A DNA stretch of 15,220 nt from Candidatus Methylomirabilota bacterium (GTDB lineage: Bacteria; Methylomirabilota; Methylomirabilia; Rokubacteriales; CSP1-6), in assembly GCA_046726415.1 (NCBI GenBank), contig JBKPAK010000158.1, positions 1 through 15,220 on the forward strand, read 5' to 3'. The position numbers and the translations under genes are program-made. Numbering within the stretch: position 1 is the stretch's first letter; each line of letters starts with the position of its first letter. This document shows, one piece after another, positions 383 to 15,220 of the stretch. The notes beneath the pieces are model-generated. The model was not told the DNA's origin. It did not search any database and was given only the letters and a program-made list of their open reading frames with translations.

Positions 383-563
383 CCGCCAGCGCCCCCCCTG
401 TCTCCGAACGAGAGGCGTGCGATGGGCGACGATCGTTCCTGAGTGGCGGCGTAACAGCGGCGGCCTCGACCCTGCGCCGGCCCATCCGCCCACGATGCCT
501 CCACCCGGATCCTCCTCCCCACCGCGAATCTCGGGGGTACGATGGTGGAGAAGAGGCACGGTC

Positions 564-1793
564 GTGAAGACACTGGCGATTGTCGTGGGCGGGGGCCCGG
601 CTCCCGGGATCAATGCGGTCATCGCGGCGGCGACCATTGAGGCCCGCAACCACGGGGTTCGGGTGCTCGGCTGCTACGACGGCTTCCGCTGGCTCATGGT
701 CGGCGATACCACGCGCGTCGTCGAGCTCGAAATCGGCGACGTCTCGCGCATCCACTTCGAGGGCGGGTCCATTCTGCGAACCTCGCGTGCCAATCCCACG
801 AGGATGCCGGACGGACCCCGCCGGGTGGCCGAGACGCTGCAGGTTCTCGGCGTCAACCACCTGATTGCCATTGGCGGCGACGACACGGCCTTCGCGGCCG
901 CCCGGCTCGCCAATGCCGGGTCTGGCCTCACAGTGGCCCACGTCCCCAAGACGATCGACAACGACCTGCCTCTGCCGAGCGACATCGTCACCTTCGGGTT
1001 CACCACCGCCTGTGACTTGGGCAAGGACCTCGTGCGCAACCTCATGCAGGACGCGGTGACGACCGAGAAGTGGTTCTTCGTCACCGTGATGGGACGGCAT
1101 GCCGGTCACCTCGCCCTCGGCATCGGCGGCGCCGCCGGCGCCACGCTCACCGTCATCGCCGAGGAGTTCCCCCTGGCCTCGATCGGCCTTCAGGATCTCG
1201 TGGACGTCCTGGAGGGGGCGATCATCAAGCGGCGGATGCAGGGACGCGAGCAGGGAGTGGCGATCCTGTCGGAAGGGCTGGCCGAGAAGCTCGATCCCGC
1301 CACCCTGGGACCGGTCGAGCACGACGCCTACGGCAACGTGCGCCTCACCGAGCTGGAGCTGGGGCGCGTGCTCAAGGAACAGGTGTCGGCGAGCCTCAAG
1401 GGGCGGGGGATCGAGGTCAGCATCGTGGCCAAGGACTTGGGCTACGAGCTCCGCTGCGCGCCGCCGGGCGCCCACGACATCCAGTACAGCCGCAGCCTCG
1501 GCTACTGGGCGACGCGATTCCTGCTCGATGGCGGCAGCAATGCCATGGTCACGATTCAGTCCGGACGCCTGGTGCCGGTGCCGTTCGGGCTGATGATCGA
1601 TCCGCGGACCGGACGGATCCGCGTCCGGTACGTCGACGTCGAATCCGAAGCCTATCAGACCCTCGCCGCGTACATGATCCGTCTCAAGCCGGAGGACTTC
1701 GCCCAACCGGAGACGGTGACCGCCCTGGCCCGGGCTGGCAACGTGACGGACGCGGAATTCGTCGCCCGCTTCGGCCGTCTCGCTCGCCGCTGA
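564..1793 (+). CDS. pfp: Pyrophosphate-dependent 6-phosphofructokinase (PfkA family, short-clade type), about 409 aa
   Basis: GTG at 564 after purine-rich GGAGAAGAGG. Motifs GGGPAPGIN, GGSIL.TSR, IGGDD (Asp at the 104-equivalent), PKTIDND (Lys at the 124-equivalent), MGR.AG and LGYELR. The Asp/Lys pair is the established PPi-specificity signature. Confidence 0.93.
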   Translation: MKTLAIVVGGGPAPGINAVIAAATIEARNHGVRVLGCYDGFRWLMVGDTTRVVELEIGDVSRIHFEGGSILRTSRANPTRMPDGPRRVAETLQVLGVNHLIAIGGDDTAFAAARLANAGSGLTVAHVPKTIDNDLPLPSDIVTFGFTTACDLGKDLVRNLMQDAVTTEKWFFVTVMGRHAGHLALGIGGAAGATLTVIAEEFPLASIGLQDLVDVLEGAIIKRRMQGREQGVAILSEGLAEKLDPATLGPVEHDAYGNVRLTELELGRVLKEQVSASLKGRGIEVSIVAKDLGYELRCAPPGAHDIQYSRSLGYWATRFLLDGGSNAMVTIQSGRLVPVPFGLMIDPRTGRIRVRYVDVESEAYQTLAAYMIRLKPEDFAQPETVTALARAGNVTDAEFVARFGRLARR

Positions 1794-1831: not shown

Positions 1832-1900
1832 TTCGCCCGCGATCCACTCATCATGTGAGTCCGTCCGTCATGCCACTCCCGCCGTGTGGCGAATCGCAAT

Positions 1901-1929
1901 TTGACTTGCCGAGGGTCCCTGGCTAGCGT
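1901..1929 (+). promoter_or_regulatory. Sigma70-type promoter for the DUF3159-like gene
   Basis: TTGACT (1901-1906), 17-bp spacer, TAGCGT (1924-1929), 22 nt upstream of ATG 1952. Confidence 0.55.
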
Positions 1930-1951
1930 CGGCGTGAGAATATCGCGTGAC

Positions 1952-2641
1952 ATGACGCTCCCTGCTAAGCCTCCCGGCCGTGTGTCACTGATCGAGCTAC
2001 TGCTCGGGTCAGGACCCCGCTTCGCCCGCGATGCGCTCGGGCCCGTGCTCGCCTTCTATGTCGCCTGGAGGGTGGCGGGATTGTTTGCTGGTGTGGTGGC
2101 CGCCACGCTCGTCGCGGTCTTGGCGTTTTGGTGGCAGCGGCGGCAGGCGGGCACCGGCATCATGCCGGCCGTCGGCCTCGGGATCGCAGCCGTCCAGGCG
2201 GTCGTGGGACTGGCATCGGGGAGCGCGTCGGCCTTTTTCGCGCCGGGCGTCATTGCCAATGGTCTCTACGGCGGAGTCTTTGTCAGTTCGGTTGCCCTCG
2301 GCCGTCCGCTGGCCGGCGTCTTCGCCGGTGAGATGTACGCGTTTCCGAGGCGCGTGCGGGATTCGGCGCTCTTCCGCCGCACCTTCTCGGTAGTCTCACT
2401 GGTCTGGGGCGGATACATGCTGCTTCGCAGCTCTGTGCGCCTCCTGGTCCTTCTCTGGAGCTCCGTCGACCTCTTCGTCGTGGTGAGCATTGCGACGGGA
2501 ATTCCCTGCACCTTGGCTCTCATGACCTGGTCCTTCTGGTATCCCCTTCGAGCATTTCAACGGCAGCCCGAACTGTGGGGTGTCGAGGAGCCGGGCGGCG
2601 CCGCCGACGCAAGCTCGAAGCCGCCCAGCGCATCCACATGA
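1952..2641 (+). CDS. DUF3159/VC0807-like multi-pass membrane protein (IspA/YciB-like), about 229 aa
   Basis: About 6 hydrophobic segments with the pattern S...GRPL.G........P.......FRR.F...S.VWG....R typical of this family. ATG 1952 follows the promoter. Confidence 0.72.
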   Translation: MTLPAKPPGRVSLIELLLGSGPRFARDALGPVLAFYVAWRVAGLFAGVVAATLVAVLAFWWQRRQAGTGIMPAVGLGIAAVQAVVGLASGSASAFFAPGVIANGLYGGVFVSSVALGRPLAGVFAGEMYAFPRRVRDSALFRRTFSVVSLVWGGYMLLRSSVRLLVLLWSSVDLFVVVSIATGIPCTLALMTWSFWYPLRAFQRQPELWGVEEPGGAADASSKPPSAST

Positions 2642-2994: not shown

Positions 2995-3112
2995 CCAGGA
3001 GCCGAGGTGGCTGATGCGCGGAGTATACTCGACCGGTTCCCCACGAGCGCACGAGCGTGATAGGTGGTAGATGATGGTGCTCGCGTTCTTCCCTCGCCCT
3101 GGCGGGGCACCG

Positions 3113-3694
3113 GTGACGAGGCACGCGCCACTCGGAGCGTGCTGGGCGCTTCTTTGCGCGATCATCGCCGCGGGTTGCCTGGCGGGTGCAGGCTGGGCGC
3201 AGGGGCCCGGCGGCGTGCCTCCGGTGCGCGTGCCCGATGTGCATTACGAGCCGTCGGAGATGGAGGTCGTGCAGGCCATGTTGCGGCTGGCCGACGTCAG
3301 GCCCGGCGACGTCGTGTACGACCTCGGGTGCGGTGACGGGCGCATCGTCATCGCTGCAGTGCGCCAGGCTAACGCCAGCGGTGTCTGCGTGGACATCGAT
3401 CCCCAACGCATCGACGAAAGCCGGGAGAACGCTCGGCGGGCGGGAGTCGCCGACCATATCCAGTTCCTGAACCAGGACTTGCTGACCACGGACATCGGCG
3501 GCGCCACTGTCGTGATGCTGTTCCTGTCGCCCCAGTTGAATCTCAAACTACGCCCCAAGCTCCTGCGCGAGCTCCAGCGCGGCACCCGCGTCGTCTCGCA
3601 TTGGCACGACATGGGCGACTGGGCGCCACAGCAAGTCGTGCTCATGTCGAGCGGCGGTCGCGAACGTCGGATCTACCTTTGGACGATCCCCTAG
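3113..3694 (+). CDS. Class I SAM-dependent methyltransferase (FAM173/aKMT-like family) with predicted N-terminal signal peptide
   Basis: PDV.YEPS...V..ML.LA....DVVYDLGCGDGRIVIAA, VDID, ATVV.LFL...LN.KLRPKL, G.RVVSH. Start uncertain: GTG 3113 preferred, ATG 3071/3074 possible. Confidence 0.88.
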   Translation: MTRHAPLGACWALLCAIIAAGCLAGAGWAQGPGGVPPVRVPDVHYEPSEMEVVQAMLRLADVRPGDVVYDLGCGDGRIVIAAVRQANASGVCVDIDPQRIDESRENARRAGVADHIQFLNQDLLTTDIGGATVVMLFLSPQLNLKLRPKLLRELQRGTRVVSHWHDMGDWAPQQVVLMSSGGRERRIYLWTIP

Positions 3695-3727: not shown

Positions 3728-4867
3728 TCAACCGAGTCGCAGATTGGTGGACGAGAGGTCGCTGCGGAACTGCGCCTCGGGAATGGCTGAGAAGAGCGAC
3801 CGGTACTCGGTCGGGATGGGAGCTTCGGCGACGGTGGCGAAGCGCCCTGTCCCGTCCACGCGCCCGGCGACCAGGAAGCGGCATCCGTGGGCGGCGATCT
3901 CGTCCAGCGCCGTGCGCATCGCCGTCTCGCGGTTTCCGTAGTACCGGGGCTGCGCAATGCGTTCGGCGGTATCGCTGCCGACCACGAACGTCGCGCCGGG
4001 AAACAGGCGGGCCTTCTCGCCGAAGGTGGGAGCGCGGGTCAGCTCGACGACGTACCGCCACTCGAACTGTCGGAGCCGGCGGCGGACCTCGGCCACCCTG
4101 AGGGACGGCTTGTCGACGTTGGTGACAGACAACTCGAACACGACGGGGGCGCTGAGGATTTGGCCGGCGACGTGGGCCAGGGCGAGATGACCGGCGTGCA
4201 GAGGATTGAACGAGCCGGGCAGGACGGCGCGCGGGATGGGAGCGCTGCGCGCCAGCTGGCCGTCGGGACACGACGTCAGCCGTTCGATCGCCCCGGCCAG
4301 CAATGACTCCAACGGGTCAGGCGGAGGCCGACGCTCCTCCGTGAGCTGGTCGACCGAGTCGAGCAGGCTGCCGATGCTCGGAGTGTCAACCCCACAGGCG
4401 CGGGCCAGCGCGATGACGATCGCTTGCGCCACGATGTCCTCCTCGGCGGCGCGGCCGCGGCGATCCTTGCCCAGCACGATGGACGTCACGTCGATCCCAT
4501 CGTCCGTGACGACGGCGATGTGGCAGCGGTGCTCGCCTTTCTTGGGCCGGTCGCTGGCCAGGCTCGCCGTCGCGCCGAGGCCCACGGTAGCCGTCGCCTC
4601 CGGGGCGAGCTCCTGCGTCCGCTGGCGGGCCTGGAGCGCCATCGCCGTGGCGGTCTCCTCACTGCACGCCTGGGCGGGCGCGCTCGTCAGGAACTTGGCG
4701 AGCGCAGCACCGTCGTAGGGCACGATCGCCTCGACGAGCATGCGCGAGCCGCCGGGCACGCGCAGCAGCTCGCCGATCGCGCCGCTACCGCCGCCGGTGA
4801 TGGCCAGCACCACTCGGCGGCCGGAAGCGTGAATCTTCTCGATGAGTTTTCGCCACGCGTCGTCCAT
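3728..4867 (-). CDS. Two-domain protein: CinA/PncC-like N-terminal domain plus HxGH nucleotidyltransferase (NMNAT/Pof1-like) domain, about 379 aa
   Basis: N-terminus AITGGGS.A...LL.VPGGS..L.EA.VPY...CS.ETA..MA. C-terminus PGSFNPLHAGH, ELSV.NVDKP, TRAPTF.EKA.LFP, FVVG.DT..RI, DLSST.LR. ATG 4867 chosen. Confidence 0.82.
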   Translation of the reverse strand: MDDAWRKLIEKIHASGRRVVLAITGGGSGAIGELLRVPGGSRMLVEAIVPYDGAALAKFLTSAPAQACSEETATAMALQARQRTQELAPEATATVGLGATASLASDRPKKGEHRCHIAVVTDDGIDVTSIVLGKDRRGRAAEEDIVAQAIVIALARACGVDTPSIGSLLDSVDQLTEERRPPPDPLESLLAGAIERLTSCPDGQLARSAPIPRAVLPGSFNPLHAGHLALAHVAGQILSAPVVFELSVTNVDKPSLRVAEVRRRLRQFEWRYVVELTRAPTFGEKARLFPGATFVVGSDTAERIAQPRYYGNRETAMRTALDEIAAHGCRFLVAGRVDGTGRFATVAEAPIPTEYRSLFSAIPEAQFRSDLSSTNLRLG

Positions 4868-4874
4868 CGCGGGC

Positions 4875-4880
4875 AGTATA
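4875..4880 (-). promoter_or_regulatory. -10 element TATACT 7 nt upstream of ATG 4867 (leaderless-type)
   Basis: Minus strand reads GGA-TATACT-GCCCGCG-ATG. No Shine-Dalgarno and no recognisable -35. Confidence 0.45.
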
Positions 4881-5081
4881 TCCGGTGGCATTTGATGTGG
4901 GGTGCGCTCGTTCGCCCCCGGGTTCACGGAGTCCCCGTTCGGCAGCGGTGCCTCATTCGTTGCGACGGCATGACGATTCGTGGAGCGGCTGGTCGCCGAG
5001 GGGAAGCCGCGGTACGCTGGTTCTGTTGGCCCGGAGTTTCTCCATTCTCACGTTCGTCCACAGCGCAAAAGGGAGGCAGTC

Positions 5082-5454: not shown

Positions 5455-5564
5455 GTGGGGGGCCCGAAGTGGCCCCCACACCCCACAGCGCTCGGCCCGG
5501 CGGCGCGGGGGGCGATCCTGACGGAGCGGCCATCGTCGGTCGGACCGCTCGTCAGGATCGTCCC
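5455..5564. terminator. Two GC-rich hairpins between convergent genes (bidirectional terminator or REP-like element)
   Basis: Hairpin 1: GTGGGGGGCC-cgaagt-GGCCCCCAC (5455-5479). Hairpin 2: arms of about 20 bp, GGGGCGATCCTGACGGAGCGG (5509-5529) and CCGCTCGTCAGGATCGTCCC (5545-5564). Confidence 0.6.
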
Positions 5565-6628
5565 GGGAGCTGCCAGCCCCCGTACAGGGCATGGGTGTCG
5601 TCGATCGGTAGGCGGACCTGCTGTCGCGTCCGAGCCGCGTGGTACACCGAGGTGATCAACTCGGCCGACGCCCGGGCGTCGGCCACCGCGACGGGGAGCT
5701 CGGAACCGGACTCGAGCGCCCGGTGAAAGCGAAGGAACTGGCCGGCAAAGCCCTCGGGCAGGGGCACGAACGCGGTCAGGGCCTCCCGGATCTGCTTGTC
5801 GATCTCCGGTGAGTCCCCGGTGAACGTCCACGAATCACTGGAGTTGCGGTAGGGCTCGGTGTTGCTTTCGGCGCTGAGGTTGGCGAAGCAGAACCGATGT
5901 CGGCTGATTTCCCGGGCCGAGCCCGTCGTCACCGATAGCGTGCAGAGCGAGCCGTCGGCCATCTCGAGAGTCGCCGCCACACAGTCCTCGGTCTCGATCG
6001 GATTCACGAGGGTGGTGAGGTGGGCGGATACGCTGCGGGCAGGCCCCAGGAGGTAGTACACGAGATCATGGCCGTGGATGGCCAGGTTGACCAGCGGGCC
6101 ACCGAGCTCCGTCGCCCACTTGGCTCGCCACGGGACCGCGTAGTACGCGGCTCGGCGGCGCCATGCCGTCTCCACGGTTGTCAGGTAAGCGCGCCCCGTG
6201 ATCCCTTGATCGGCGAGGAATTTGAGCTTCTGGATGCCGTGGCCGAAGCGGTACTGGAAGATTGGCATCACGCGGCGGCCAGATCGCTTCTCGGCCTCGG
6301 CCACCCGGTCCGCTTCCTGGAGTGACCCGGCCAGCGGCTTCTCGCAGATCACGTGCCGTCCCGCTTCCAGGGCCTGGAGCGTCTGGGCAACGTGTAGGTA
6401 GGGCGGCGTGCAGATGTCGATGACGTCCAGATCGTCCATCGCGCAGAGCGCGCGGAAATCCGTGGTCACGCGAGGGATCGCGTACTGCGTCGCGACCTGG
6501 CGCATTCGCTCCTCATCGAGCTCGCAGATCGCGGCCACCTCGAACTGTTCGGGCAGGCTCCGATAAGCGTCCACGTGTGGTCGCCCGATGCCACAGCCGA
6601 CCACGCCTACCTTCAACCTACCGCTCAT
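5552..6628 (-). CDS. Gfo/Idh/MocA family NAD(P)-dependent oxidoreductase, 358 aa
   Basis: VGVVGCGIG Rossmann motif, D..DICTPP..H, HVICEKPL, GG....AIH.HD; RBS GGGAG. Confidence 0.93.
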   Translation of the reverse strand: MSGRLKVGVVGCGIGRPHVDAYRSLPEQFEVAAICELDEERMRQVATQYAIPRVTTDFRALCAMDDLDVIDICTPPYLHVAQTLQALEAGRHVICEKPLAGSLQEADRVAEAEKRSGRRVMPIFQYRFGHGIQKLKFLADQGITGRAYLTTVETAWRRRAAYYAVPWRAKWATELGGPLVNLAIHGHDLVYYLLGPARSVSAHLTTLVNPIETEDCVAATLEMADGSLCTLSVTTGSAREISRHRFCFANLSAESNTEPYRNSSDSWTFTGDSPEIDKQIREALTAFVPLPEGFAGQFLRFHRALESGSELPVAVADARASAELITSVYHAARTRQQVRLPIDDTHALYGGWQLPGRS

Positions 6629-6683: not shown

Positions 6684-7697
6684 TCAGCGGGCCGCTCCGA
6701 GCCTCACCGCCGTGGCCTCGGCCTCCAGCGCCAGCTGGCAGGCCCGGAAGCAGTGCGCCTGTGACATAGCGGTCTCGGTCCGATTGAGGATGTCGGAGAC
6801 GAGCCGACGTCCATAGGGCAGGTCGCCGCCGCTGGCGTCCACGTGGCGGGTGGCCTTCTGGTCGACCACGAACAGATGGTTTCCGCCGGGACGCCCGCCC
6901 ACATCCACGTACTTGCGCAGCTCGATGTAGCCTTCGGTGCCCAGGATGACGAGACGGCCATCCCCCCATGTCCCGAGGCCGTCGGGCGTGTACCAGTCCA
7001 CCCGAATGTAACCGGTCCCGCCGTCGCCGCGCAGTATGATCTCGCCAAAGTCCTCCAGTTCTGGCCACTCCGGGAATTTCCAGTTGGCCACCTGGGCTGC
7101 CACGACTTCCGCGTCGGTCGAGCCGGTGAAGAAAAGGAACTGATCCGTCTGGTGCGAGGCGATGTCGGCGAGTATGCCGCCGTACTGCGCCCGCTTGAAG
7201 AACCACGGGGGGCGGCCGGCTGCATTGAGCCGATGGGGCCCTAGACCCACCGTGTGGACGACCTTCCCAATCGCTCCTGCCTCGACCAGCTCCCCCGCCC
7301 GCACCGTGGCGGCATTCTCGAATCGCTCGCTGAAGCAGACCGAGAAGATCCGCCGTGTCTCCGCCTGGACTCGCCGAGCCTCCGCCAACTGCTCCAGCGT
7401 GGTGAAGGCGGGCTTGTCGCTCATGTAGTCCTTCCCGTGACGCATCGCCTCGATGCCAAGCCCGGCGCGGTCGCACGGGATGGCCGCGCTGACGACGAGG
7501 TGGAGGCGTGGATCTTCCAGGATCTCCCGCCGGTCGCCGGCCGGCTTCGCCCGCGGGTACCTCCGACCAAACTGGGCGGCCAGGTCAGGCTCCTCAGCAA
7601 AGAACGCGACCAGCTCTGCCCCCGCGCGGAGCAGGAGATCCGTCTGGGCAAAGATGTGGTCATGGTTGAGGCCGATGACCGAAAACCGTATGGCCAC
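6684..7697 (-). CDS. Gfo/Idh/MocA family oxidoreductase, 337 aa
   Basis: GKDYMSDKP (EKP variant), GAIGKVV, GGILADIASHQ.DQF, ILGTEG.IE; atypical N-terminal IGLNHDHI; GTG start. Confidence 0.9.
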   Translation of the reverse strand: MAIRFSVIGLNHDHIFAQTDLLLRAGAELVAFFAEEPDLAAQFGRRYPRAKPAGDRREILEDPRLHLVVSAAIPCDRAGLGIEAMRHGKDYMSDKPAFTTLEQLAEARRVQAETRRIFSVCFSERFENAATVRAGELVEAGAIGKVVHTVGLGPHRLNAAGRPPWFFKRAQYGGILADIASHQTDQFLFFTGSTDAEVVAAQVANWKFPEWPELEDFGEIILRGDGGTGYIRVDWYTPDGLGTWGDGRLVILGTEGYIELRKYVDVGGRPGGNHLFVVDQKATRHVDASGGDLPYGRRLVSDILNRTETAMSQAHCFRACQLALEAEATAVRLGAAR

Positions 7698-7778: not shown

Positions 7779-7939
7779 GTGATGAGCGCCTGCTCATCGC
7801 CAAGAGAGTGTACCTACCTCCGCGGAGTTCCGCCGGGCGAACGCCCCTGTCCCTCAGCGGGGACGGGACCCAGCCCGCCGAGGAGGCCGGCGACGGTGAT
7901 CGGAGTTACATTGGCGGGACCGCCAGGGAGGGGGAGCCC

Positions 7940-8803
7940 ATGCCGATGCGCTTTGGATTGTTTTCCACCAACGCCTATGCCTCGGTGGAGCCGGGCACGA
8001 TGGCGCGCGTGGCCCGCGCCGCGGAAGCCGTCGGCTTCGAGTCGCTGTGGGGCGGCGAGCACGTCGTGCTGCCGGAACCCCAGGCACCCCCGTCGCCGAT
8101 GGCCCCGACCGACCCCATCCTCGATCCGGGGATTGCGCTCACGTACGCGGCGGCGCTGACAACCCGAGTGCGCCTTGGCACCGGCATCATCATCCTGCCC
8201 CAGCGCAGTCCGCTCGTGCTGGCCAAGGAGCTCGCCAGCCTCGACGTGCTGTCGAGCGGTCGGCTCATCGTCGGCATCGGCGTCGGCTACCTCGAGGCGG
8301 AGTTCCGGGCGCTCGGCGCGCCCTTCGAGCACCGAGGTGCTGTCACCGACGAATATCTCGCCGCCATGCGCTCCATCTGGGAGCAGGTGAAGCCCGCCTA
8401 TCACGGGCGCTTCGTCTCGTTCGCCAACGTGCAGGCCTATCCCCGGCCCGTGCAGCGTCCGCATCCGCCCGTGGTGATCGGCGGTCGCTCCGCCCCGGCC
8501 TTTCGCCGCGCCGTGCAGCAGGGCAACGGCTGGTATGGCTTCGCGCTCGACCTCGACGGAACCCGGCGCGCCCTGGACGGGCTCCGCGAGGCGGCGGCGC
8601 AGCACCCGCGCCCGGCTGCCCTCGGCGACCTCGAGATCAGCATCACGCCGGGCCGTGGTGTCGGGGTCGACCTCGCGACGTGTGAGAAGTACGCGGCGCT
8701 CGGCGTGCACCGGCTGATCCTCATGCCGTCCGCGAAGCTCGACGCCGACGGCCTTGAGCGCTACGTCGAGACCGTGGGCGAAAAGCTCGTCGGGCGGATG
8801 TAG
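7940..8803 (+). CDS. LLM-class (luciferase-like) oxidoreductase, probable F420-dependent Rv2161c-type, about 287 aa
   Basis: RBS GGAGGGGGAG. Motifs AE..GFESLW.GEHVVLP, DP...L..AAA.T.RVRLGTGI.ILPQR.P..LAKELASLD.LS.GR, P.PVQ.PHPP..IGG.S..AFRRA...GNGW. Confidence 0.9.
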   Translation: MPMRFGLFSTNAYASVEPGTMARVARAAEAVGFESLWGGEHVVLPEPQAPPSPMAPTDPILDPGIALTYAAALTTRVRLGTGIIILPQRSPLVLAKELASLDVLSSGRLIVGIGVGYLEAEFRALGAPFEHRGAVTDEYLAAMRSIWEQVKPAYHGRFVSFANVQAYPRPVQRPHPPVVIGGRSAPAFRRAVQQGNGWYGFALDLDGTRRALDGLREAAAQHPRPAALGDLEISITPGRGVGVDLATCEKYAALGVHRLILMPSAKLDADGLERYVETVGEKLVGRM

Positions 8804-8888: not shown

Positions 8889-8930
8889 CGCGCTCGGCGC
8901 GCGCATCTGAACTCAATGAGGAGGCCGACC

Positions 8931-10460
8931 GTGCACCATCTCAGACTGGCCGTGTGTGCTCTGCTCGCCTTGATTGCCGTCACCTCACCCGCCGCCGCCG
9001 CTCCCGAGGGGCAGCTGACGTGGGGTGTTCACATCTCATTGGCGCCGACGTGGTTCGATCCCGCCGAGACGCAGGGAATCATCACGCCGTTCATGGTGAT
9101 GTACGCGATTCACGACGCGCTAGCCAAGGCCATGCCCGGAAACCCGACCGCGCCGAGCCTGGCCGAGTCGTGGCAGATGTCGCCCGACGGGCGCGTGTAC
9201 GACTTCACCTTGCGCAAGGGGGTGAAATTCCACAACGGCGACCCGCTCACCTCCGAGGACGTGAAGTTCTCGTTCGAGCGCTACAAGGGGGCTGCTGCGA
9301 AAACCCTCAAGGACCGCGTGGCCGCCGTGGAGACGCCAGGTCCCCTCCACGTGCGGTTCCGGCTGAAGAACCCCTGGCCCGACTTCATGACGTTCTACAC
9401 GGCGGCCAGCGGCGCAGGCTGGATCGCGCCAAAGAAGTACGTCGAAAAGGTCGGCGAGGACGGGTACAAGAAGGCGCCCATCGGCGCCGGGCCCTACAAG
9501 TTCGTCGCCTTCAACCCGGGGATCGAGCTAGTCATGGAGGCCTTCGATGGGTACTGGCGCAAGACGCCGAGCGTGAAGCGGCTGGTCTTCAAGGTCATCA
9601 CGGACGAGACGACCCGGTTGGCCGCCCTGAAGCGCGGCGAGGTCGACGTGGTGTATTCGATCCGCGGGGAGCTCGCGGAAGAGCTCCTGCGCACCCCAGG
9701 GCTCACCTTGAAGCCGACGGTCATCCAGGCCCCGCAGTGGTTGAGCATGCTGGACCAGTGGGATCCGAAGTCGCCCTGGCACGACAAGCGCGTGCGCCTG
9801 GCCGCCAACCTGGCGATCGACCGCAAGGCCATCAACCAGGCCATCACCCTCGGCCACTCGAAGCTGACGTACAGCATCATCCCGAGCACGTTCGACTTCT
9901 ACTGGCAGCCCCCCAATCCCTATCCGTTCGATGTCGCGCAGGCCAAGAAGCTCCTCGCCGAAGCGGGCTACCCGAGCGGCTTCGACGCGGGCGATTATTA
10001 CCTGGACATCTCGTACGCGAACGTACAGGAAGCGATCGCGGGCTACCTGCAGCAGGTCGGCATTCGCTCCAAGCTGAGGCCGGTCGAGCGCGCGACGCAC
10101 TGGAGCAGCTACCAGGACAAGAAGTACAAGAACCTCGCGTACACGGCGAGCGGCGCGTTTGGCAACGCAGCGACCCGCCTGGAGACCTTCGTGATCGCCG
10201 GCGGTTCGTACGTCTACGGCAGCTATCCGGACATCGACTCGCTCTTCAAGGACCAGGCGGCCGAGCTCGATCGCAAGAAGCGCGAGGCGCTCCTCCACAA
10301 GATCCAGCAGCTCATGCACGAAAAGGCCATGCACATCCCGATCTGGGAGCTGGCCTTCATCAATGGACAAAGCGCCCGGGTCCAGGAATCCGGGCTCGGT
10401 CTCATCCCCGGCCATGCCTACTCCGCGCCCTACGAGGACGTGACGCTCAAGGCAAAGTGA
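8931..10460 (+). CDS. ABC transporter substrate-binding protein, family 5 (peptide/nickel type), about 509 aa
   Basis: RBS GAGGAGG then GTG 8931. Signal peptide ending SPAAA/A. Motifs PSLAESW..S.DG..Y.F.LRKGVKFHNG..LT.EDV.FS.ER, PIG.GPYKF, D.RVR.A...AIDR, AKKLLAEAGYP.GF. Confidence 0.94.
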   Translation: MHHLRLAVCALLALIAVTSPAAAAPEGQLTWGVHISLAPTWFDPAETQGIITPFMVMYAIHDALAKAMPGNPTAPSLAESWQMSPDGRVYDFTLRKGVKFHNGDPLTSEDVKFSFERYKGAAAKTLKDRVAAVETPGPLHVRFRLKNPWPDFMTFYTAASGAGWIAPKKYVEKVGEDGYKKAPIGAGPYKFVAFNPGIELVMEAFDGYWRKTPSVKRLVFKVITDETTRLAALKRGEVDVVYSIRGELAEELLRTPGLTLKPTVIQAPQWLSMLDQWDPKSPWHDKRVRLAANLAIDRKAINQAITLGHSKLTYSIIPSTFDFYWQPPNPYPFDVAQAKKLLAEAGYPSGFDAGDYYLDISYANVQEAIAGYLQQVGIRSKLRPVERATHWSSYQDKKYKNLAYTASGAFGNAATRLETFVIAGGSYVYGSYPDIDSLFKDQAAELDRKKREALLHKIQQLMHEKAMHIPIWELAFINGQSARVQESGLGLIPGHAYSAPYEDVTLKAK

Positions 10461-10469
10461 CCGCCGCGG

Positions 10470-11630
10470 TCAGGGTTCGCCGGCGGATGTCACCGTCTTG
10501 ACAGGAGCGCCGGTCGACAGATACACGCGGGCCACGCGCGGCCCGACGGTAGTGGCCACGTGGTGCAGGCCGAGGCCATGCTGTCTGGCCACCTCCGCGG
10601 CGGTGATTTCGGCATCACCCTGGCGGCCGATGATCACGACCTCGTCGCCGACGTGAGCGTCCGGCACCTGGGTTAGGTCGATGCGCGTGTGCTCGAGCGA
10701 GGGGCCGCCAATGATGGGCGCGGCTCGCCCGCGCACGAGGACCCGCCCGGCGTGGAGCCAGAGGAGGCCGTCGGCCGAGCCCATGGGGATCACCCCGAGC
10801 TTCATTGATGCCGTCAGGGGAAACGGCGCCAGCTCGGCGAAGCGCTCCCGCGGCGACAGTTCCTTGAGGGCGATGATGCGCGTGGTGAGCGCCCGAAAAG
10901 TCGGTCGCAACGGCAGGGACGATGTCTCGCCGGGGAACGTAATCCCATAGAGCATTCGCCCGGGATCGACGGCGTTCAGGTACGTCTGGGGGAACTTCAG
11001 CACGAAAGGCGAGGCGGCGAGCAAGCGAGTGGGCACCGGCACCCCCCGGGCCTCCAGCTCGTCGACCACCGTGGTAAACCGGCCGAGCTGCCACTCGGCG
11101 TACGCGGGGTCGTCGCCGTCGTGGGGGTGAGCGCAGAGTCCGGCCAGGCGCAGGCGCGGCAGCTCCAGCATGGCCGTGACGATCTTCACCGCTTGCTCGG
11201 CCGGCACGCCCAGCCGCTCGAGCCCGACGTCGACCTTGACGAACACGTCGCACGGGCCGGCGGCCGCTTCCGAATACGCCCGCGCGCCGTCGAGGTCCGT
11301 AAGCGCCGGGGTGAGAGCGTGAGCGATGGTGTCCGGCGCGGCCTCGGGCAATGAGTTCGGGTATACGAGGATCGGTGTGGTGATCCCGCGCCGGCGGAGG
11401 CGGATTCCCTCGGCGAGATCGGCGACGGCCAGTGCATCGGCGCCATGCGCGGAGAAGACGGCCCCCATCTCGGCGGCGCCGTGCCCGTAGCCGTCGGCCT
11501 TGACCACCGCGAAGATCTTTCGCCCCGGTCCCACCCGCTGGCGCACGGCCCGCACGTTCGCCGCGGCGGCATCGAGGTCGATCTGGAGGGTGGTCGGCCG
11601 GGGCGGTCGCGACGCGGGTGTGGTCGTCAT
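10470..11630 (-). CDS. alr: Alanine racemase-family (fold type III PLP) enzyme with divergent active site, 386 aa
   Basis: IDLDA...N, AVVKADGYGHG (PLP Lys), LAVA.L.EGI.LR..GI..PILV, KVD.G..RLG, GDEVVIIGRQG; RBS GAGGAG. The symbol is family-level only; several racemase residues are substituted (see findings). Confidence 0.88.
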   Translation of the reverse strand: MTTTPASRPPRPTTLQIDLDAAAANVRAVRQRVGPGRKIFAVVKADGYGHGAAEMGAVFSAHGADALAVADLAEGIRLRRRGITTPILVYPNSLPEAAPDTIAHALTPALTDLDGARAYSEAAAGPCDVFVKVDVGLERLGVPAEQAVKIVTAMLELPRLRLAGLCAHPHDGDDPAYAEWQLGRFTTVVDELEARGVPVPTRLLAASPFVLKFPQTYLNAVDPGRMLYGITFPGETSSLPLRPTFRALTTRIIALKELSPRERFAELAPFPLTASMKLGVIPMGSADGLLWLHAGRVLVRGRAAPIIGGPSLEHTRIDLTQVPDAHVGDEVVIIGRQGDAEITAAEVARQHGLGLHHVATTVGPRVARVYLSTGAPVKTVTSAGEP

Positions 11631-11661: not shown

Positions 11662-12744
11662 TCACACCCGCGGGATCAGGTGCGCGTCGCCCGTGCCCCA
11701 GCCGACTTCCACGGTGGCGCCCTCCCGGACGGACTCCGGCGGCGCGCCAGCGATGCGAAGGCGCAGCGCCTGCGTTCCCACTGCGCCGATCGCGAGAACG
11801 CTGTCGCCGTAGTTGGCGACGACGTCGATGCGCATGGCAAGGCGGTTGGGCGGGCCGGGGGCGCCCCCGGCGCCGGCCAAGCGGATGCGCTCGGGCCGTA
11901 CCAGCACGTCGACGGCGCCACCCCCGATCCGGCGGCAGGCTTCGGGATCGACCTGGATGGGACCAAGGCCATCCAGGGCGACGGTGCCAGGGCGTGCGAG
12001 GTCGAGGGTGCCCGTGAAGAAGTTGCTGTCGCCGATGAACTCGCCGACGAAGCGCGTGCGCGGCCGGTGGTAAACCTCCAGCGGCGGCGCGACCTGCTCG
12101 AGCTTGCCATGGCTGAAGACGGCGACGCGGTCGGACATGGTCATGGCCTCGCTCTGGTCGTGGGTGACGTACACCATGGTGATGCCGACCTCGCGGTGGA
12201 TGCGCTTGAGCTCGACCTGCATCTGCTCGCGCAGGTTCTTGTCGAGCGCGCCGAGTGGCTCGTCGAGGAGCAGCACGTCCGGGTCGAAGACGAGCCCGCG
12301 CGCGAGCGCGACGCGCTGCTGCTGGCCTCCCGACAGTTCGCGCGGGTACCGGCCGGCGAAGCCGCCGAGGCCGACCAGGTCGAGGATCTCGCGCACGCGC
12401 GCGGCCTGGTGATCGCGGGGGAAGCGGCGCATGCGGAGGGGGAAGGCGACGTTGCGCTCGACGGTCATGTGCGGAAAGAGGGCGTAGTTCTGGAAGACCA
12501 TGCCGATGTTGCGCTCGTACGGCTTGCGACGGGTGAGGTCTTCTCCACCGAGCTCGATGGCGCCGGCGGTGGGTTCCTCGAAGCCCGCGATCATCATAAG
12601 GGTCGTCGTCTTGCCAGAGCCACTCGGACCGAGGAAGGTGAGGAACTCGCCCCGCGCGATGTCAATGTCGATGTCGTCGACGGCGTTGACGCGGCCGTCG
12701 TAGGACTTGACGACGTTGCGGAGCCGAAGGTACGGCGTGCTCAC
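11662..12744 (-). CDS. ABC transporter ATP-binding protein, PotA-like (polyamine/opine class), 360 aa
   Basis: Walker A GPSGSGKTT, VFQNYALFPHM, LSGGQQQRVALAR, LLLDEPLGALD, YVTHDQ.EA, C-terminal TOBE-like region. Confidence 0.95.
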   Translation of the reverse strand: MSTPYLRLRNVVKSYDGRVNAVDDIDIDIARGEFLTFLGPSGSGKTTTLMMIAGFEEPTAGAIELGGEDLTRRKPYERNIGMVFQNYALFPHMTVERNVAFPLRMRRFPRDHQAARVREILDLVGLGGFAGRYPRELSGGQQQRVALARGLVFDPDVLLLDEPLGALDKNLREQMQVELKRIHREVGITMVYVTHDQSEAMTMSDRVAVFSHGKLEQVAPPLEVYHRPRTRFVGEFIGDSNFFTGTLDLARPGTVALDGLGPIQVDPEACRRIGGGAVDVLVRPERIRLAGAGGAPGPPNRLAMRIDVVANYGDSVLAIGAVGTQALRLRIAGAPPESVREGATVEVGWGTGDAHLIPRV

Positions 12745-12775: not shown

Positions 12776-14875
12776 TCACCGCGCGGGGACGATCAGCGCG
12801 TCGACGACGACGCAGCCCCGCCCGGCCGGGCGAACGACGATCGGGTTGAGGTCGATCTCCTCGATGTGGGCGCGTTCGGCGTGGGCGAAGTCGGCGAGGG
12901 TTTCGAGGCAGTGCACGAGACTCTCGACGTCGGCGGGCGGACTCCCCCGCTGGGCCCCCAGCGAGGGAGCGCCGCGGATCTCGCGCACCATGGCGCCGGC
13001 ATCGCCCTCGCGCAGCGGCAGCGGGCGCAGGGCGAAGTCACGCAGGAGCTCGACGGCGACGCCGCCCACGCCGAAGGCGAACACGTGGCCGAACTCGGGG
13101 TCGCGGCTCACCCCGGCGAAGACCTCGACGCCGCCGGTGACCATCTCCTGGACGAGGAAGCCAGCAACGCGGGCCGACGAGGGGATGCGTCCCTCGAGGG
13201 ACTTCCAGGCCTTCTCGAGCGCGGCGTCGTCGGCGAGCGCGAGCGCCACCAGGCCGAGGTCGGTCTTGTGGCCGATGTCGTCGGAAACGACCTTGAGAGC
13301 CACGGGATAGCCGAGCTCGCGCGCGGACGCCCGCGCGTCGGCCAGCGATGCGGCCAGCCGCTCGCGCGCGACGGGCACGCCATGCGCGGCGAGGAGCCGC
13401 TTCGCGTCGTGCTCGTGGATGCTCGGGCGCGCGCCACCGGCCAGGAAACTGGCTACGCTTGGCCCGGCGAGCGGGCGCGAGGGCCGTCGCGGCGGCCGCG
13501 GCTCGGCCCACGCGGCCATCCGGTCCACGGCGCCCAGCCCCTGGCGGGTGCCGCCGATCATCGGAATGCCAAGCCCGGCGAGGAACTGTACCTGTTGCCG
13601 CTGCATGACGCCGGGCCGGGTGTTCATCATGAAGTGGGGCTTCCGGCTCGTCTGGGCGGCAGCGGCGAAGAGGCGCGCGTAATCGAGCGCTCGCTCGGCC
13701 TGCCCCATCGGCGCTTCGTCGCAGCTGTCGCTGCAGAACGCGATGGCGTCCACTGTGGTCGCCGCGTCGAGGGCGGCGAGGGCGTGGGGGAGGTTGGTGC
13801 GGTAGTCTCCGTTGCCCCACGCGTCGAGCGGATTGCCATCTCCGGTGATGGAGCCCACCACTCGCTCGACCTCCTGTCTGGTCTCGGGCGGCAGGGGAGG
13901 CAATGCGAGATCGACGGTCGAGGCCACGTCGAGGATCAGCTCGGCCTGGCCGCCAGAGGCGGTGACGACGGCGAGGCGGCGGCCGCGCGGCCACCGGTGC
14001 CCCTGGCACACCGCGAGCACCTCGGTCAGCTCGTCGAGGTCGTTCACCTCGATCGCCCGGTGGGCCCGCAGCATGGCCGAAAACACGCGCGATTCGCCGG
14101 CGAGACCGCCGGTGTGGGTGGCGATGGCGCGGCGCGTGCGCTCGTGACGACCCACTTTGAGGACCACCACCGGCTTGCCGCGGTCGGCGGCGCGGTCGAG
14201 CGCGGCGACGAAGCGCTCGGGATCGCCGACCCACTCGGTGAACGCGGCGATCAGAGCGGTGTGCTCGTCGTCGACGAGCGCGTCGATGTAGGCGGCCGTG
14301 CTGACCACGGCCTCGTTGCCCGACGAGATCACGTGGCTGTAGCCGAAGCGGCGCACGTCGGCGAGCAGGCCGATGCAGACGGAGCCGCTCTGAGAGACCA
14401 GGCCCACGTTGCCGGCCAGACCGCGGGGGTCCCGCACTTCCTGCAGGTAGAGCGAGCTGCGGTCGTGGGGGTTGAGGATGCCCATGCAGTTGGGTCCGCA
14501 CAGGGCGATCCCGGCCTCGCGGCAGATGCCCGCGATCTCGGCCTGGAGCGCGCGTCCCTCCTCGCCGCGCTCGGCGAAGCCGCCGTCGAAGATCACGGCA
14601 CCCCGCGCGCCGGCGTCCGCGAGCGCCCGGAAGTTCTCGAGGATGCGCGTCGCGCTGACGCAGAGGCAGACCACATCGGGCGCTTCCGGCAGGTCGTGCA
14701 CGCTCCCGTAACAGCGCTGGCCCAGGACTTCGGGATAGCGGGGGTTGATCGGGTAGACGCGCCCCGCGAAGCCGAGGCGCCCCGCCGACTCGAGGAGCGC
14801 ACGCCCGATCGACGGGCGTTCGGAGGCGCCGAGGACGGCGATGGAGCGGGGACGGAGCAGGACGTCAAGCGACAT
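12776..14875 (-). CDS. ADP-forming acetate/acyl-CoA ligase family protein (fused CoA-binding, ligase and ATP-grasp domains), 699 aa
   Basis: L.PRSIAVLGAS, YPINP, GPNCMG, SQSG, S.GNE, KPVVVLKVGR, THTGGLAG (phospho-His), SGG, NPLD, GYPV.LK, HKTD.G.V, EIDLNP, VDA. ATG 14875 with RBS GGGAGG; overlaps the permease stop. Confidence 0.93.
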   Translation of the reverse strand: MSLDVLLRPRSIAVLGASERPSIGRALLESAGRLGFAGRVYPINPRYPEVLGQRCYGSVHDLPEAPDVVCLCVSATRILENFRALADAGARGAVIFDGGFAERGEEGRALQAEIAGICREAGIALCGPNCMGILNPHDRSSLYLQEVRDPRGLAGNVGLVSQSGSVCIGLLADVRRFGYSHVISSGNEAVVSTAAYIDALVDDEHTALIAAFTEWVGDPERFVAALDRAADRGKPVVVLKVGRHERTRRAIATHTGGLAGESRVFSAMLRAHRAIEVNDLDELTEVLAVCQGHRWPRGRRLAVVTASGGQAELILDVASTVDLALPPLPPETRQEVERVVGSITGDGNPLDAWGNGDYRTNLPHALAALDAATTVDAIAFCSDSCDEAPMGQAERALDYARLFAAAAQTSRKPHFMMNTRPGVMQRQQVQFLAGLGIPMIGGTRQGLGAVDRMAAWAEPRPPRRPSRPLAGPSVASFLAGGARPSIHEHDAKRLLAAHGVPVARERLAASLADARASARELGYPVALKVVSDDIGHKTDLGLVALALADDAALEKAWKSLEGRIPSSARVAGFLVQEMVTGGVEVFAGVSRDPEFGHVFAFGVGGVAVELLRDFALRPLPLREGDAGAMVREIRGAPSLGAQRGSPPADVESLVHCLETLADFAHAERAHIEEIDLNPIVVRPAGRGCVVVDALIVPAR

Positions 14876-15220
14876 GAGCGGGCCTCCCGCGACGCGCCAC
14901 CCAGACGACCACCCCGAGCACGACGGTGGATACGAGCAAGGTGGAGACGACGGCGATGACGGGGTCGGATTCGAGGCGGATGCTCTCGTACATTTTCTTG
15001 GGCAAGGTTGCGGCACCGCGGCCAGCGATGAACAGCGCCACCACTGCCTCGTTGAACGAGGACAGAAAGGCGAAGAGCGCGCCGACCAGCATGCCGGGCC
15101 GCAGCACCGGCAGGGTCACGTGCAGGAACGTGCGCAGGGGTCCGGCGCCTGCGCTCATGGCCGCCCGCTCGAGGTTCCGGTCGAATCCCTTGAGGCTGGC
15201 CGCGATCACCAGGAAGGCGA
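14865..15220 (-). CDS. ABC transporter permease, PotC-like, 5'-partial
   Basis: EAA-loop variant D.NLERAAMSAGA.P.RTF..VTLP...PG...GALFAF..SFNE, TLP..M...I.....P.IA.VST. Frame is open to the window edge. Confidence 0.92.
   Translation of the reverse strand, partial: AFLVIAASLKGFDRNLERAAMSAGAGPLRTFLHVTLPVLRPGMLVGALFAFLSSFNEAVVALFIAGRGAATLPKKMYESIRLESDPVIAVVSTLLVSTVVLGVVVWVARRGRPAHVA

Follow-up and report, generated by a model that had tools for sequence, protein, structure and literature searches.

The gene at positions 10470 to 11630 on the minus strand of contig JBKPAK010000158.1, a 15,220-bp contig that was analyzed whole (the window) and that belongs to a 7.6-Mb, 98%-complete Rokubacteria metagenome-assembled genome (MAG) of a Candidatus Methylomirabilota bacterium, encodes a 386-residue protein, P0001, with the fold of alanine racemase (Alr), an enzyme dependent on pyridoxal 5′-phosphate (PLP), and an active site that lacks both Arg219 and the catalytic Tyr265 of that enzyme. 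Our tentative reading, to which we give a probability of roughly 0.36, is that P0001 is a functional dimeric PLP enzyme of a large, uncharacterized paralogous clade, distinct from the housekeeping alanine racemase, and that it may carry out chemistry driven by Lys44 alone with an aspartate at the pyridine nitrogen, either transamination or β-elimination, to give a 2-oxo acid. Fold and dimer geometry were predicted, and the residue assignments, conservation, paralogy, selection, and gene neighborhoods that bear on this reading were computed.

Alr is a textbook example of PLP chemistry under the control of a protein: the pyridine is kept unprotonated by Arg219, and Cα lies between two bases. As the cited papers describe it in their treatment of Alr, these bases are Lys39 and Tyr265′ (a prime marks a residue of the partner subunit), and an arginine at the pyridine nitrogen, N1, disfavors the quinonoid (PMC6411801, PMC4401734, PMC13397332). 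In the clade of P0001 nature has altered both features together, with compensating changes. This large and diverse clade occurs in Rokubacteria, on plasmids of Rhizobiaceae, on a betaproteobacterial plasmid, and on many soil metagenome contigs, and curated hidden Markov models (HMMs) still call its members alanine racemase. Characterizing one member would test ideas on reaction specificity that have so far rested on point mutants, would correct a systematic misannotation, and might extend the range of reactions known for fold type III. Searches of open-access papers turned up no account of a relative of Alr whose residue 219, the N1 partner, is acidic.

Active site and predicted dimer of P0001

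The open reading frame (ORF) of P0001 is intact and starts with ATG, with GAGGAG located 6 nt 5′ of the start. Its product matches the Pfam domains Ala_racemase_N (PF01168, 6.8e-55) and Ala_racemase_C (PF00842, 7.4e-21) and no others at E ≤ 0.001, and a search of the protein Atlas returned Alr-family clusters only. Pipelines name the gene alr because its score against the NCBI alr equivalog TIGR00492, 229.8 bits, exceeds the curated cut-off of 168; an earlier interpretation made from the letters of the window (the sequence-only reading) had predicted as much, and relatives of P0001 are already labeled “alanine racemase” in their source records. For P0001 the automatic label is probably wrong. 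The protein belongs to the Alr family at the level of fold and HMM, and it is not filed here as an alanine racemase because Arg219 and Tyr265, both defining catalytic features, were tested for and are absent. The gene and its active-site motifs are as follows.

10470..11630, minus strand: gene for the Alr-fold PLP enzyme P0001, 386 aa (open ORF, Pfam, TIGR00492, AlphaFold2, Foldseek)
11478..11510, minus strand: motif AVVKADGYGHG, with Lys44 (11499-11501) equivalent to the PLP Schiff-base Lys39 and Tyr48 to Tyr43 (alignment, conservation)
11214..11216, minus strand: Arg139, equivalent to Arg136, the binder of the carboxylate and O3′, retained (alignment, conservation, dimer model)
11121..11129, minus strand: His168-Pro-His170, with His168 equivalent to His166 and kept, and His170 in place of Ala168 of Alr (alignment, conservation)
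10956..10976, minus strand: motif NAVDPGR, with Asp222 (10965-10967) at the site of Arg219, the pyridine N1 partner (alignment, conservation)
10821..10847, minus strand: segment ERFAELAPF, with Glu266 (10833-10835) at the site of catalytic Tyr265 (four alignments)
10776..10778, minus strand: Ser285 at the site of Tyr284 (alignment, conservation, dimer model)
10683..10700, minus strand: motif SLEHTR at the site of CMDQxM, with Glu313, His314, and Arg316 given to the active site of the partner (alignment, model)
10560..10565, minus strand: His356-His357, with His356 at the site of Tyr354 (alignment, conservation, dimer model)

The residue map was obtained by aligning the clade profile to a 388-residue Alr chain of the G. 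stearothermophilus type (13ld_A), with the numbering verified at Lys39 and Arg219. P0001 retains Lys39, within the motif (V/A)VKAxxYGHG, as Lys44, Tyr43 as Tyr48, Lys129 as Lys132, Arg136 as Arg139, and His166 as His168. It has Asp222 for Arg219, Glu266 for Tyr265, Ser285 for Tyr284, His356 for Tyr354, Val131 for His127, Leu203 for His200, and His170 for Ala168, and its Ser311-Leu312-Glu313-His314 corresponds to Cys311-Met312-Asp313-Gln314. The arginine that is hydrogen bonded to pyridine N1 in Alr is thus an aspartate in P0001, and the segment that covers the second, L-face base, Tyr265′, contains no tyrosine; Glu266 stands opposite the catalytic tyrosine in the profile alignment and in three pairwise phmmer alignments (4y2w, 5irp/8zpe, and 4ecl), that is, in four independent alignments. 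The profile and pairwise alignments agree with the alignment to G. stearothermophilus Alr that had been drawn by eye in the sequence-only reading: the motifs quoted there (AVVKADGYGHG, NAVDPG, KELSPRERFAELA, GSADG, GPSLE, and LHHV) are all in the translation, with codon coordinates checked, the equivalents of Lys129, Arg136, and His166 were rightly called retained, and those of His127 and His200 rightly called lost. The exchange of Asp313 for Glu is conservative, and the striking gains specific to the clade, which the sequence-only reading did not single out, are His314, Arg316, and His170.

AlphaFold2, run with the clade alignment, predicts the fold of P0001 with a pLDDT of 94.9 and a pTM of 0.92, and the best Foldseek matches in the PDB are all alanine or serine racemases (TM score 0.85–0.90, 27–33% identity). 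A model of two copies with PLP reaches an ipSAE of 0.90, versus 0.01 for the best of three controls, and passes the mark for a dimer; in calibration, 20 of 30 proteins solved as one-chain pairs attained this mark, against 1 of 23 single-chain structures. At least 73% of contacts are common to the runs, and the pLDDT of the partner is at least 90. As solved Alr dimers exist, this pass may be recall of the family and therefore shows likeness only. The predicted homodimer is head to tail, with residues 311–316 touching Lys44, Tyr48, and Arg139 of the partner. The modeled residue-to-residue contacts include Glu313′ with Lys44, Leu312′ with Lys44, Tyr48, and His356, Arg316′ with Arg139, and Ser285′ and Ala286′ with His357 and Lys44; His170, His314, His356, and His357 lie in the interface.

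The clade keeps the D-face half of the Alr active site, comprising Lys44, Glu313′ (in touch with Lys44 in the model), Arg139, and His168, and has replaced the remainder: Asp222 would face N1, the L-face Tyr265′ is gone, the partner would place Arg316′ by Arg139 and also contribute His314′, and His170 would line the pocket. The second arginine from the partner seems to have been added exactly where Tyr265′ was lost. Bacterial Alr (G. stearothermophilus 1SFT/1BD0/1L6F, T. tengcongensis 4Y2W, and B. subtilis Alr2 5IRP) resembles P0001 in its two-domain fold (TM score 0.87–0.90, ∼30–33% identity), the predicted head-to-tail dimer, the PLP-lysine motif, Tyr43, Lys129, Arg136, and His166, whereas P0001 is set apart by the changes Arg219 to Asp, Tyr265 to Glu, Tyr284 to Ser, Tyr354 to His, and Ala168 to His, by SLEHTR in place of CMDQxM with its new His314 and Arg316, and by its occurrence as a paralogue beside canonical alr in relatives. 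Sequence and profile searches of the PDB did not find a solved member of the clade, the best match being the canonical 4y2w.

Clade signature, selection, and paralogy

A search of 1.84 billion representative sequences gave 21,959 Alr-family matches at E ≤ 0.001, and the 115 full-length sequences (330–430 aa) among the best 150 matches were aligned. In the FastTree tree of these 115 rows, whose midpoint root serves only to draw it, 40 rows form a canonical clade, every one with Arg219 (SH-like support 99), and 60 rows form a second clade, every one with Asp or Glu at 219 (support 91, and 97 for a 49-row core); P0001 lies in the second. Lys44 and His168 are found in 60/60 members of the latter and Arg139 in 57/60. 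Position 219 is Asp in 58 and Glu in 2; Glu313 is present in 59, with Asp in the remaining one, His314 in 50, with Tyr in another 6, and Arg316 in 53. His170 (39/60) and an acid, Glu or Asp, at 266 (37/60) are less general, and positions 285 and 356/357 are variable. We define the clade, which is unnamed, by Asp or Glu219, the absence of Tyr265, Glu313, His or Tyr314, and Arg316, with Lys39, Arg136, and His166 kept; P0001 has every feature of this Asp219/no-Tyr265/Glu313-His314-x-Arg316 clade. The substitutions, whose co-occurrence in a clade (Asp219, Glu265, Ser284, and Ser-Leu-Glu) the sequence-only reading had proposed to check, are a coherent and conserved signature, with the acid at 266 and position 285 as its less constant parts.

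The signature residues travel together in the whole alignment. Asp or Glu219, the absence of Tyr265, Glu313, and Arg316 are combined in 52/115 rows, and Arg219, Tyr265, Asp313, and the absence of Arg316 in 37/115; Arg316 is found in 53/115 rows, 52 of which are without Tyr265, and a histidine two positions after His166 is found in 0/41 of the Arg219 rows. Small intermediate groups also exist in which Glu-His accompanies Asp, Asn, or Cys at 219; Tyr265 is retained in some of them, and in the eight groups with a residue other than Arg at 219 and Tyr265 kept, Arg316 is absent, one row excepted. As the rows are kin to each other, these counts stand for a single coherent signature of a lineage, not for 52 separate events.

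Conservation is tighter still in the close orthologues, a set of 121 sequences made up of P0001 and its 120 best matches (80–99% identity). Lys44, Tyr48, Lys132, Arg139, Cys166, His168, His170, Asp222, Arg225, the run Leu312-Glu313-His314-Thr315-Arg316, His356, and His357 are invariant in 121/121, and 119 of the 386 positions are invariant overall, every PLP-binding and signature residue among them. Three of the altered sites vary: the position of Glu266 (E 104, D 14, G 2, A 1), that of Ser285 (S 110, T 8, M 2, L 1), and that of Ser311 (S 101, N 19, A 1). The change from Tyr265 to Glu, which the sequence-only reading had emphasized, is correctly aligned and is the least conserved of the changes. 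Between P0001 and 14 MAG orthologues the ratio of nonsynonymous to synonymous substitution rates (dN/dS) is 0.14–0.23, and the gene is therefore under purifying selection, in keeping with the earlier description of the ORF as intact. The substitutions are a conserved clade signature, far beyond chance, and not decay.

Paralogy was assessed by a TIGR00492 profile search of 61 genomes in the phylum, from which the matches were extracted and their motifs checked; the family sample comprises 33 genomes of the query’s bacterial family, the query genome excluded. (Three unpublished genomes, G029, G047, and G057, enter counts only.) In 8/33 genomes (G019, G023, G025, G033, G035, G040, G049, and G052) a canonical alr (at least 300 bits) accompanies a P0001-type gene (72–87% identity, full signature), so the P0001 type is a paralogue; the variant motifs were checked in all eight, and the canonical genes were recognized by their motifs in G023, G033, G035, and G049 and by score in the other four. 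Canonical alr alone is found in 4/33, the P0001 type alone in 5/33 (by motif in G015, G027, G042, and G050, by score alone in G029), Alr-like genes of other types alone in 5/33 (G012 with Asn219 and Tyr kept; G010, G031, and G037 with Cys219; G021 with a fragment), and 11/33 have no TIGR00492 match. All canonical loci extracted from the phylum (29 of 30, one of them in G047) carry VR(P/I)G, SYG, GY(A/G)DG, and (C/T)MD.

The Alr-less genomes pose a side question of their own. These 11 (G013, G017, G028, G030, G032, G038, G039, G043, G056, G057, and G060) are 86–100% complete and have no match to the alr model at E ≤ 1e-10; a D-Ala-D-Ala ligase gene (ddl) scores above its cut-off in 5/5 of those tested (G013, G017, G030, G032, and G057). 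A third of the sampled family genomes thus lack an Alr-family gene, with the ligase shown in the five tested, and the family evidently has a source of D-alanine that is independent of Alr.

Several further observations concern the wider family. Glu replaces the Lys129 equivalent (position 132 of P0001) in 10/60 clade members; Lys129 of Alr is carbamylated and pairs with Arg136, and a glutamate at its site would mimic the carbamate. A separate Alr-like group has Cys at the Arg219 site (NAVCPG), an SLEH motif, and neither Tyr265 nor Arg316; its members are P0145, P0206, P0209, P0217, P0248, and P0270, together with G010, G031, and G037 (loci L168-L170) from the query’s bacterial family. P0147 (763 aa), from another divergent Alr lineage outside the clade of P0001, joins two complete Alr-like units in tandem; both have Arg219 and lack the Tyr265 motif (GWNNE and GRRHC stand there instead) and the CMD motif. 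Fusion proteins were considered as a clue to function and set aside, as the MurF-Alr, Clp_N-Alr, and tandem double Alr proteins are all of the Arg219 type and the remaining case is an N-terminal fragment fused to DctQ. Two orthologues (L014 5052-6172 and L025 10019-10730) match the query as two pieces in different frames and are either frameshifted pseudogenes or assembly errors. The query’s matches in other phyla (L026-L032) are canonical Alr and uninformative on the clade.

Proposed reaction and its alternatives

The protonation state, outcome, and substrate of the reaction favored here are those that we infer from the arrangement of residues. An amino acid other than alanine would form the external aldimine, with its carboxylate clamped in plane by Arg139 and Arg316′, and Lys44 would take the Cα proton. 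The quinonoid, which Alr is designed to avoid, would be stabilized by a protonated pyridine salt-bridged to Asp222. With the L-face base gone, we propose that Lys44 itself would resolve the carbanion, either by protonating C4′ (transamination) or with loss of a β-substituent, and the product 2-oxo acid would be handed to neighboring catabolic enzymes (aldolase, 2-hydroxyacid dehydrogenase, or 2-oxoacid oxidoreductase). In fold-type I aminotransferases the pair Arg386/Arg292* would be the analogue of Arg139 plus Arg316′.

Laboratory variants of Alr offer precedents for parts of this scheme. In the portions of the cited papers that treat these variants, Y265A and Y265S transaminate D-alanine (PMC6411801, PMC4401734, PMC13397332), Y265A gains a D-specific retro-aldolase activity via His166 (PMC6411801, PMC4401734), and R219E gives a quinonoid and side reactions (PMC6411801, PMC4401734). 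P0001 is a natural protein that unites both kinds of change with His166 kept, whereas the Y265A and R219E enzymes are laboratory point mutants of poor activity that lack the co-varying Glu313, His314, Arg316, and His170.

The genes found beside members of the clade may weakly support a 2-oxo acid product. A metagenome scan with a 10-sequence alignment (the other related loci were found with P0001 alone) gave 80 loci, all with Lys44, Arg139, Asp222, Glu313-His314, and Arg316, of which 70 are 61–85% identical to P0001; intergenic gaps are mostly 50 nt or less, and many loci end at contig edges. A class II pyruvate aldolase of the GarL/HpaI type lies directly upstream on the same strand in 22/80, followed in 12 of these 22 by a PhyH dioxygenase directly downstream and often with an aldo-keto reductase and a PuuE-like deacetylase near. 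Amidohydro_2 genes stand immediately beside the P0001-type gene, on one or both sides, in 18/80, TRAP transporter genes surround it in 6/80, an enoyl-CoA hydratase follows it in 5/80, and D-2-hydroxyacid dehydrogenase genes occur in 5/80. In a distant subclade (42–44% identity, 4 loci) the order is caprolactamase-like A/B, ALR, class II aldolase, SDR, and 2-oxoacid:ferredoxin oxidoreductase. Partner enzymes of these kinds use 2-oxo acids, and another amine-removing enzyme was not found within three genes on either side in the metagenome operons.

On plasmids of Rhizobiaceae and on one betaproteobacterial plasmid, genes labeled alr are members of the clade (DAVDPG, HLEH(I/L)R, no Tyr265; two checked). 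In 4/5 of the plasmid regions inspected the clade gene lies inside an amino-acid ABC importer operon, in the order ABC ATPase, permease, permease, clade-type alr, and Lys/Arg/Orn-type binding protein. This five-gene cassette occupies L064 5681-9958, L065 6755-10964, L066 6701-10960, and L067 6744-10960, on plasmids of Agrobacterium vitis, Rhizobium sp., Agrobacterium sp. T29, and Roseateles sp., and looks like a module of uptake plus one enzyme for some amino-acid-like nutrient. The three Rhizobiaceae plasmids, which are conjugative, have AraC regulators and an MFS gene upstream of the cassette and carry the cassette close to tra genes, and the Roseateles cassette has a LysR-family regulator upstream. 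Family-3 binding proteins were tried as a link shared by the Rokubacteria orthologues and the Agrobacterium member and discarded, since they show no BLASTP similarity. The settings in which the clade is at home are those of transport and catabolism, as opposed to gene clusters for the cell wall.

A number of points weigh against the 2-oxo acid reading. All characterized proteins with Ala_racemase_N plus Ala_racemase_C, as listed in the PDB, are racemases, and an aminotransferase of fold type III is not known, PMC6411801 assigning aminotransferases to types I and IV. A new L-face base could be supplied by His170, His314′, or Glu266′. The clade member is the sole enzyme of the Rhizobiaceae importer operon, which would suit a racemase equally well. 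The metagenome neighbors come from crude ORF calling, with each cluster named from one Pfam-scanned representative, and the operons of orthologues at 74–85% identity differ widely: HpcH-PhyH, Amidohydro_2 flanking on either side, enoyl-CoA hydratase, TRAP or ABC transporters, and here acyl-CoA synthetase plus ABC ATPase. Each arrangement may be lineage-specific synteny, and the argument from neighbors is weak; partners differ between lineages even for near-identical orthologues, which limits the weight of the neighborhoods. Finally, in the query genome TIGR00492 and PF00842 match P0001 only, and ddl is present.

Nearly as likely as the favored 2-oxo acid reading, and still doubtful, is that P0001 is a racemase or epimerase of an amino acid other than alanine, with Lys44 as the D-face base and His170, His314′, or Glu266′ recruited on the L face. 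The family record of two-domain racemases speaks for it, as do the clade-specific His170 and His314, invariant in the 121 orthologues and placed in the modeled interface, the single-enzyme importer operon in 4/5 plasmid regions, which is the arrangement expected for conversion of an imported D-amino acid, and the variable 284 and 354 positions, which suggest many substrates. OrnR of Salmonella, which PMC13397332 presents in its account of the enzyme as the one natural Alr-family racemase known without the tyrosine, shows that this residue can be replaced, by a cysteine on another loop. OrnR is encoded beside amino-acid transporter genes and has Arg220 at N1, Asn at the His166 site, and the base Cys164 three residues on (PMC13397332, same account), whereas P0001 has Asp222 at N1 and keeps His166. 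The position three after the histidine in P0001, Asp171, varies among the 121 orthologues (D 69, G 12, E 8, S 6, V 6 ...), and the OrnR type was rejected for P0001, which has neither the conserved cysteine nor the N1 arginine. As OrnR lacks the tyrosine and still has Arg220, a new base or substrate does not by itself call for the loss of Arg219. Against a racemase, moreover, every known fold-type III racemase, OrnR too, retains the N1 arginine that the clade has exchanged for Asp (58/60) or Glu (2/60), none of the candidate bases is universal in the clade (His170 39/60, His314 50/60, acid at 266 37/60), and R219E in Alr is reported, in the section of PMC6411801 on this variant, to open side reactions. 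The sequence-only reading of a neofunctionalized enzyme is supported in part: the gene is intact and belongs to a conserved paralogous clade, and what it encodes may be a racemase with a substitute base, comparable to the cysteine of OrnR.

It is considerably less probable that the reaction is another outcome of the carbanion, namely, retro-aldol cleavage of a D-β-hydroxy amino acid, possibly metal assisted by the histidine cluster, or decarboxylation. The retro-aldolase activity of Alr Y265A works via His166, which is kept here (PMC4401734, PMC6411801, in their descriptions of that variant), and His170, His314, His356, His357, and Glu313, invariant in the orthologues, surround the pocket in a manner reminiscent of a metal site; His356 and His357, however, are not conserved across the wider clade. 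The D-threonine aldolase/D-serine dehydratase family, represented by AxDTA, shares with P0001 an Alr-like barrel, a dimer, and D-specific, lysine-driven chemistry with no second base, but AxDTA differs in its C-terminal domain family, in Gln249 at N1, and in a different metal site, with His347 and Asp349 binding Mn (PMC4401734). Identity with this family was rejected: its D-serine-dehydratase-like C-terminal domain was not found in P0001, and the true homologues that the query genome already has, two BhcC/D-threonine-aldolase-like genes, lie on contigs C186 and C103 and are, with one YggS-like gene, the only PF01168 matches besides P0001. An alignment of the CMD/SLE loop with the D-threonine aldolase metal ligands was also considered and dropped, as the ligands lie in the barrel domain (PMC4401734). 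By eye, the Asp-Pro-Gly and Gly-Pro-x-x-Glu of P0001 resemble the Glu-Pro-Gly and Gly-Pro-Cys-Cys-Glu of the LysA-like decarboxylase in the genome, as in fold-type III decarboxylases (Orn, DAP, and Arg) an acid precedes Pro-Gly at N1 and a Gly-Pro-x-x-Glu loop comes from the partner. The profile comparison with LysA is not significant (hhalign probability 0.5%), and these motifs therefore remain a by-eye likeness; Orn_Arg_deC_N and Orn_DAP_Arg_deC are not among the Pfam matches, and decarboxylase identity was rejected. P0001 further differs from these enzymes in Arg139 and Arg316′ at the carboxylate site, and two arginines on the α-carboxylate would argue against decarboxylation.

That P0001 is the organism’s true alanine racemase, making D-alanine for the cell wall with an unusual base, is improbable. 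A separate canonical alr, which the sequence-only reading had proposed to look for, was not found in this 98%-complete genome, which has a D-Ala-D-Ala ligase and in which 0/4 class-IV aminotransferases reach the D-amino-acid transaminase cut-offs; near-complete G027 (8 contigs) likewise has the P0001 type only, and one Rokubacteria MAG orthologue (L010) lies 17 nt upstream of a gene for an S13 D-Ala-D-Ala carboxypeptidase. Yet the P0001 type co-occurs with canonical alr in 8/33 family genomes, both catalytic hallmarks are absent, and the tyrosines at 284 and 354 that form the small-substrate pocket are replaced. As 11/33 family genomes do without an Alr-family gene, with ddl in 5/5 tested, the missing canonical alr proves little, and it weakens the sequence-only reading less than it seems to. 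Most improbable of the readings is that P0001 is the relic of an Alr, decaying or catalytically dead, or a regulator that binds PLP: both hallmarks are lost, but the dN/dS values, the 119 invariant positions with their PLP-binding and signature residues, the size and diversity of the clade, and the confident structure model all tell against it. What probability remains falls to something else.

A further step beyond the 2-oxo acid reading, and a rather unlikely one, is that the clade is the first natural aminotransferase or deaminating lyase on the fold-type III Alr scaffold, with a two-arginine carboxylate site, converting D- or hydroxylated amino acids to 2-oxo acids. If that were true, the 2-oxo acids would serve, in soil bacteria, as substrates of 2-oxoacid oxidoreductases and class II pyruvate aldolases, and thousands of alr labels would be wrong in reaction class, not in substrate alone.

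Neighbors of P0001 in the window and in related MAGs

P0001 is the last gene of a co-oriented run of acyl-CoA synthetase, ABC ATPase, and P0001, bounded on its upstream side by the contig end at 15220. The neighboring genes are as follows.

12776..15016, minus strand: member of the ADP-forming acyl-CoA synthetase family, upstream of the ATPase gene by 31 nt (Pfam)
11662..12744, minus strand: ABC ATPase that resembles PotA and has a TOBE domain, upstream of P0001 by 31 nt (TIGR01187 353.6 bits versus a cut-off of 355.6)
8916..10460, plus strand: family-5 solute-binding protein, convergent, its end 9 nt from the P0001 stop (context only)

The ATPase gene and P0001 are probably co-transcribed. 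Scans for promoters and terminators in the window found nothing above shuffled sequence, and an Rfam scan of the window gave no match; where the two convergent genes meet there is a weak hairpin (10458-10472). The remaining genes of the window are not linked to P0001.

417-1793, plus strand: PFK-family kinase
1886-2641, plus strand: DUF3159 membrane protein
3071-3694, plus strand: SAM methyltransferase with a signal-like N terminus
3728-4927, minus strand: CinA-like/cytidylyltransferase-like fusion
5552-6628 and 6684-7697, both minus strand: two Gfo/Idh/MocA oxidoreductases
7808-8803, plus strand: luciferase-like monooxygenase (LLM)

None of the neighbors seen here (acyl-CoA synthetase, ATPase, family-5 binding protein, LLM) is conserved beside the P0001-type gene in 26 related loci. 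Eight Rokubacteria MAG loci have varied neighbors, comprising LLM oxidoreductases, a family-3-like binding protein, Amidohydro_2, and MFS transporters. In the acyl-CoA synthetase gene of the window, the listed GTG start gives a 47-residue, Pro/Ser-rich leader without a domain, and translation more likely begins at the ATG at 14875 (MSLDV...).

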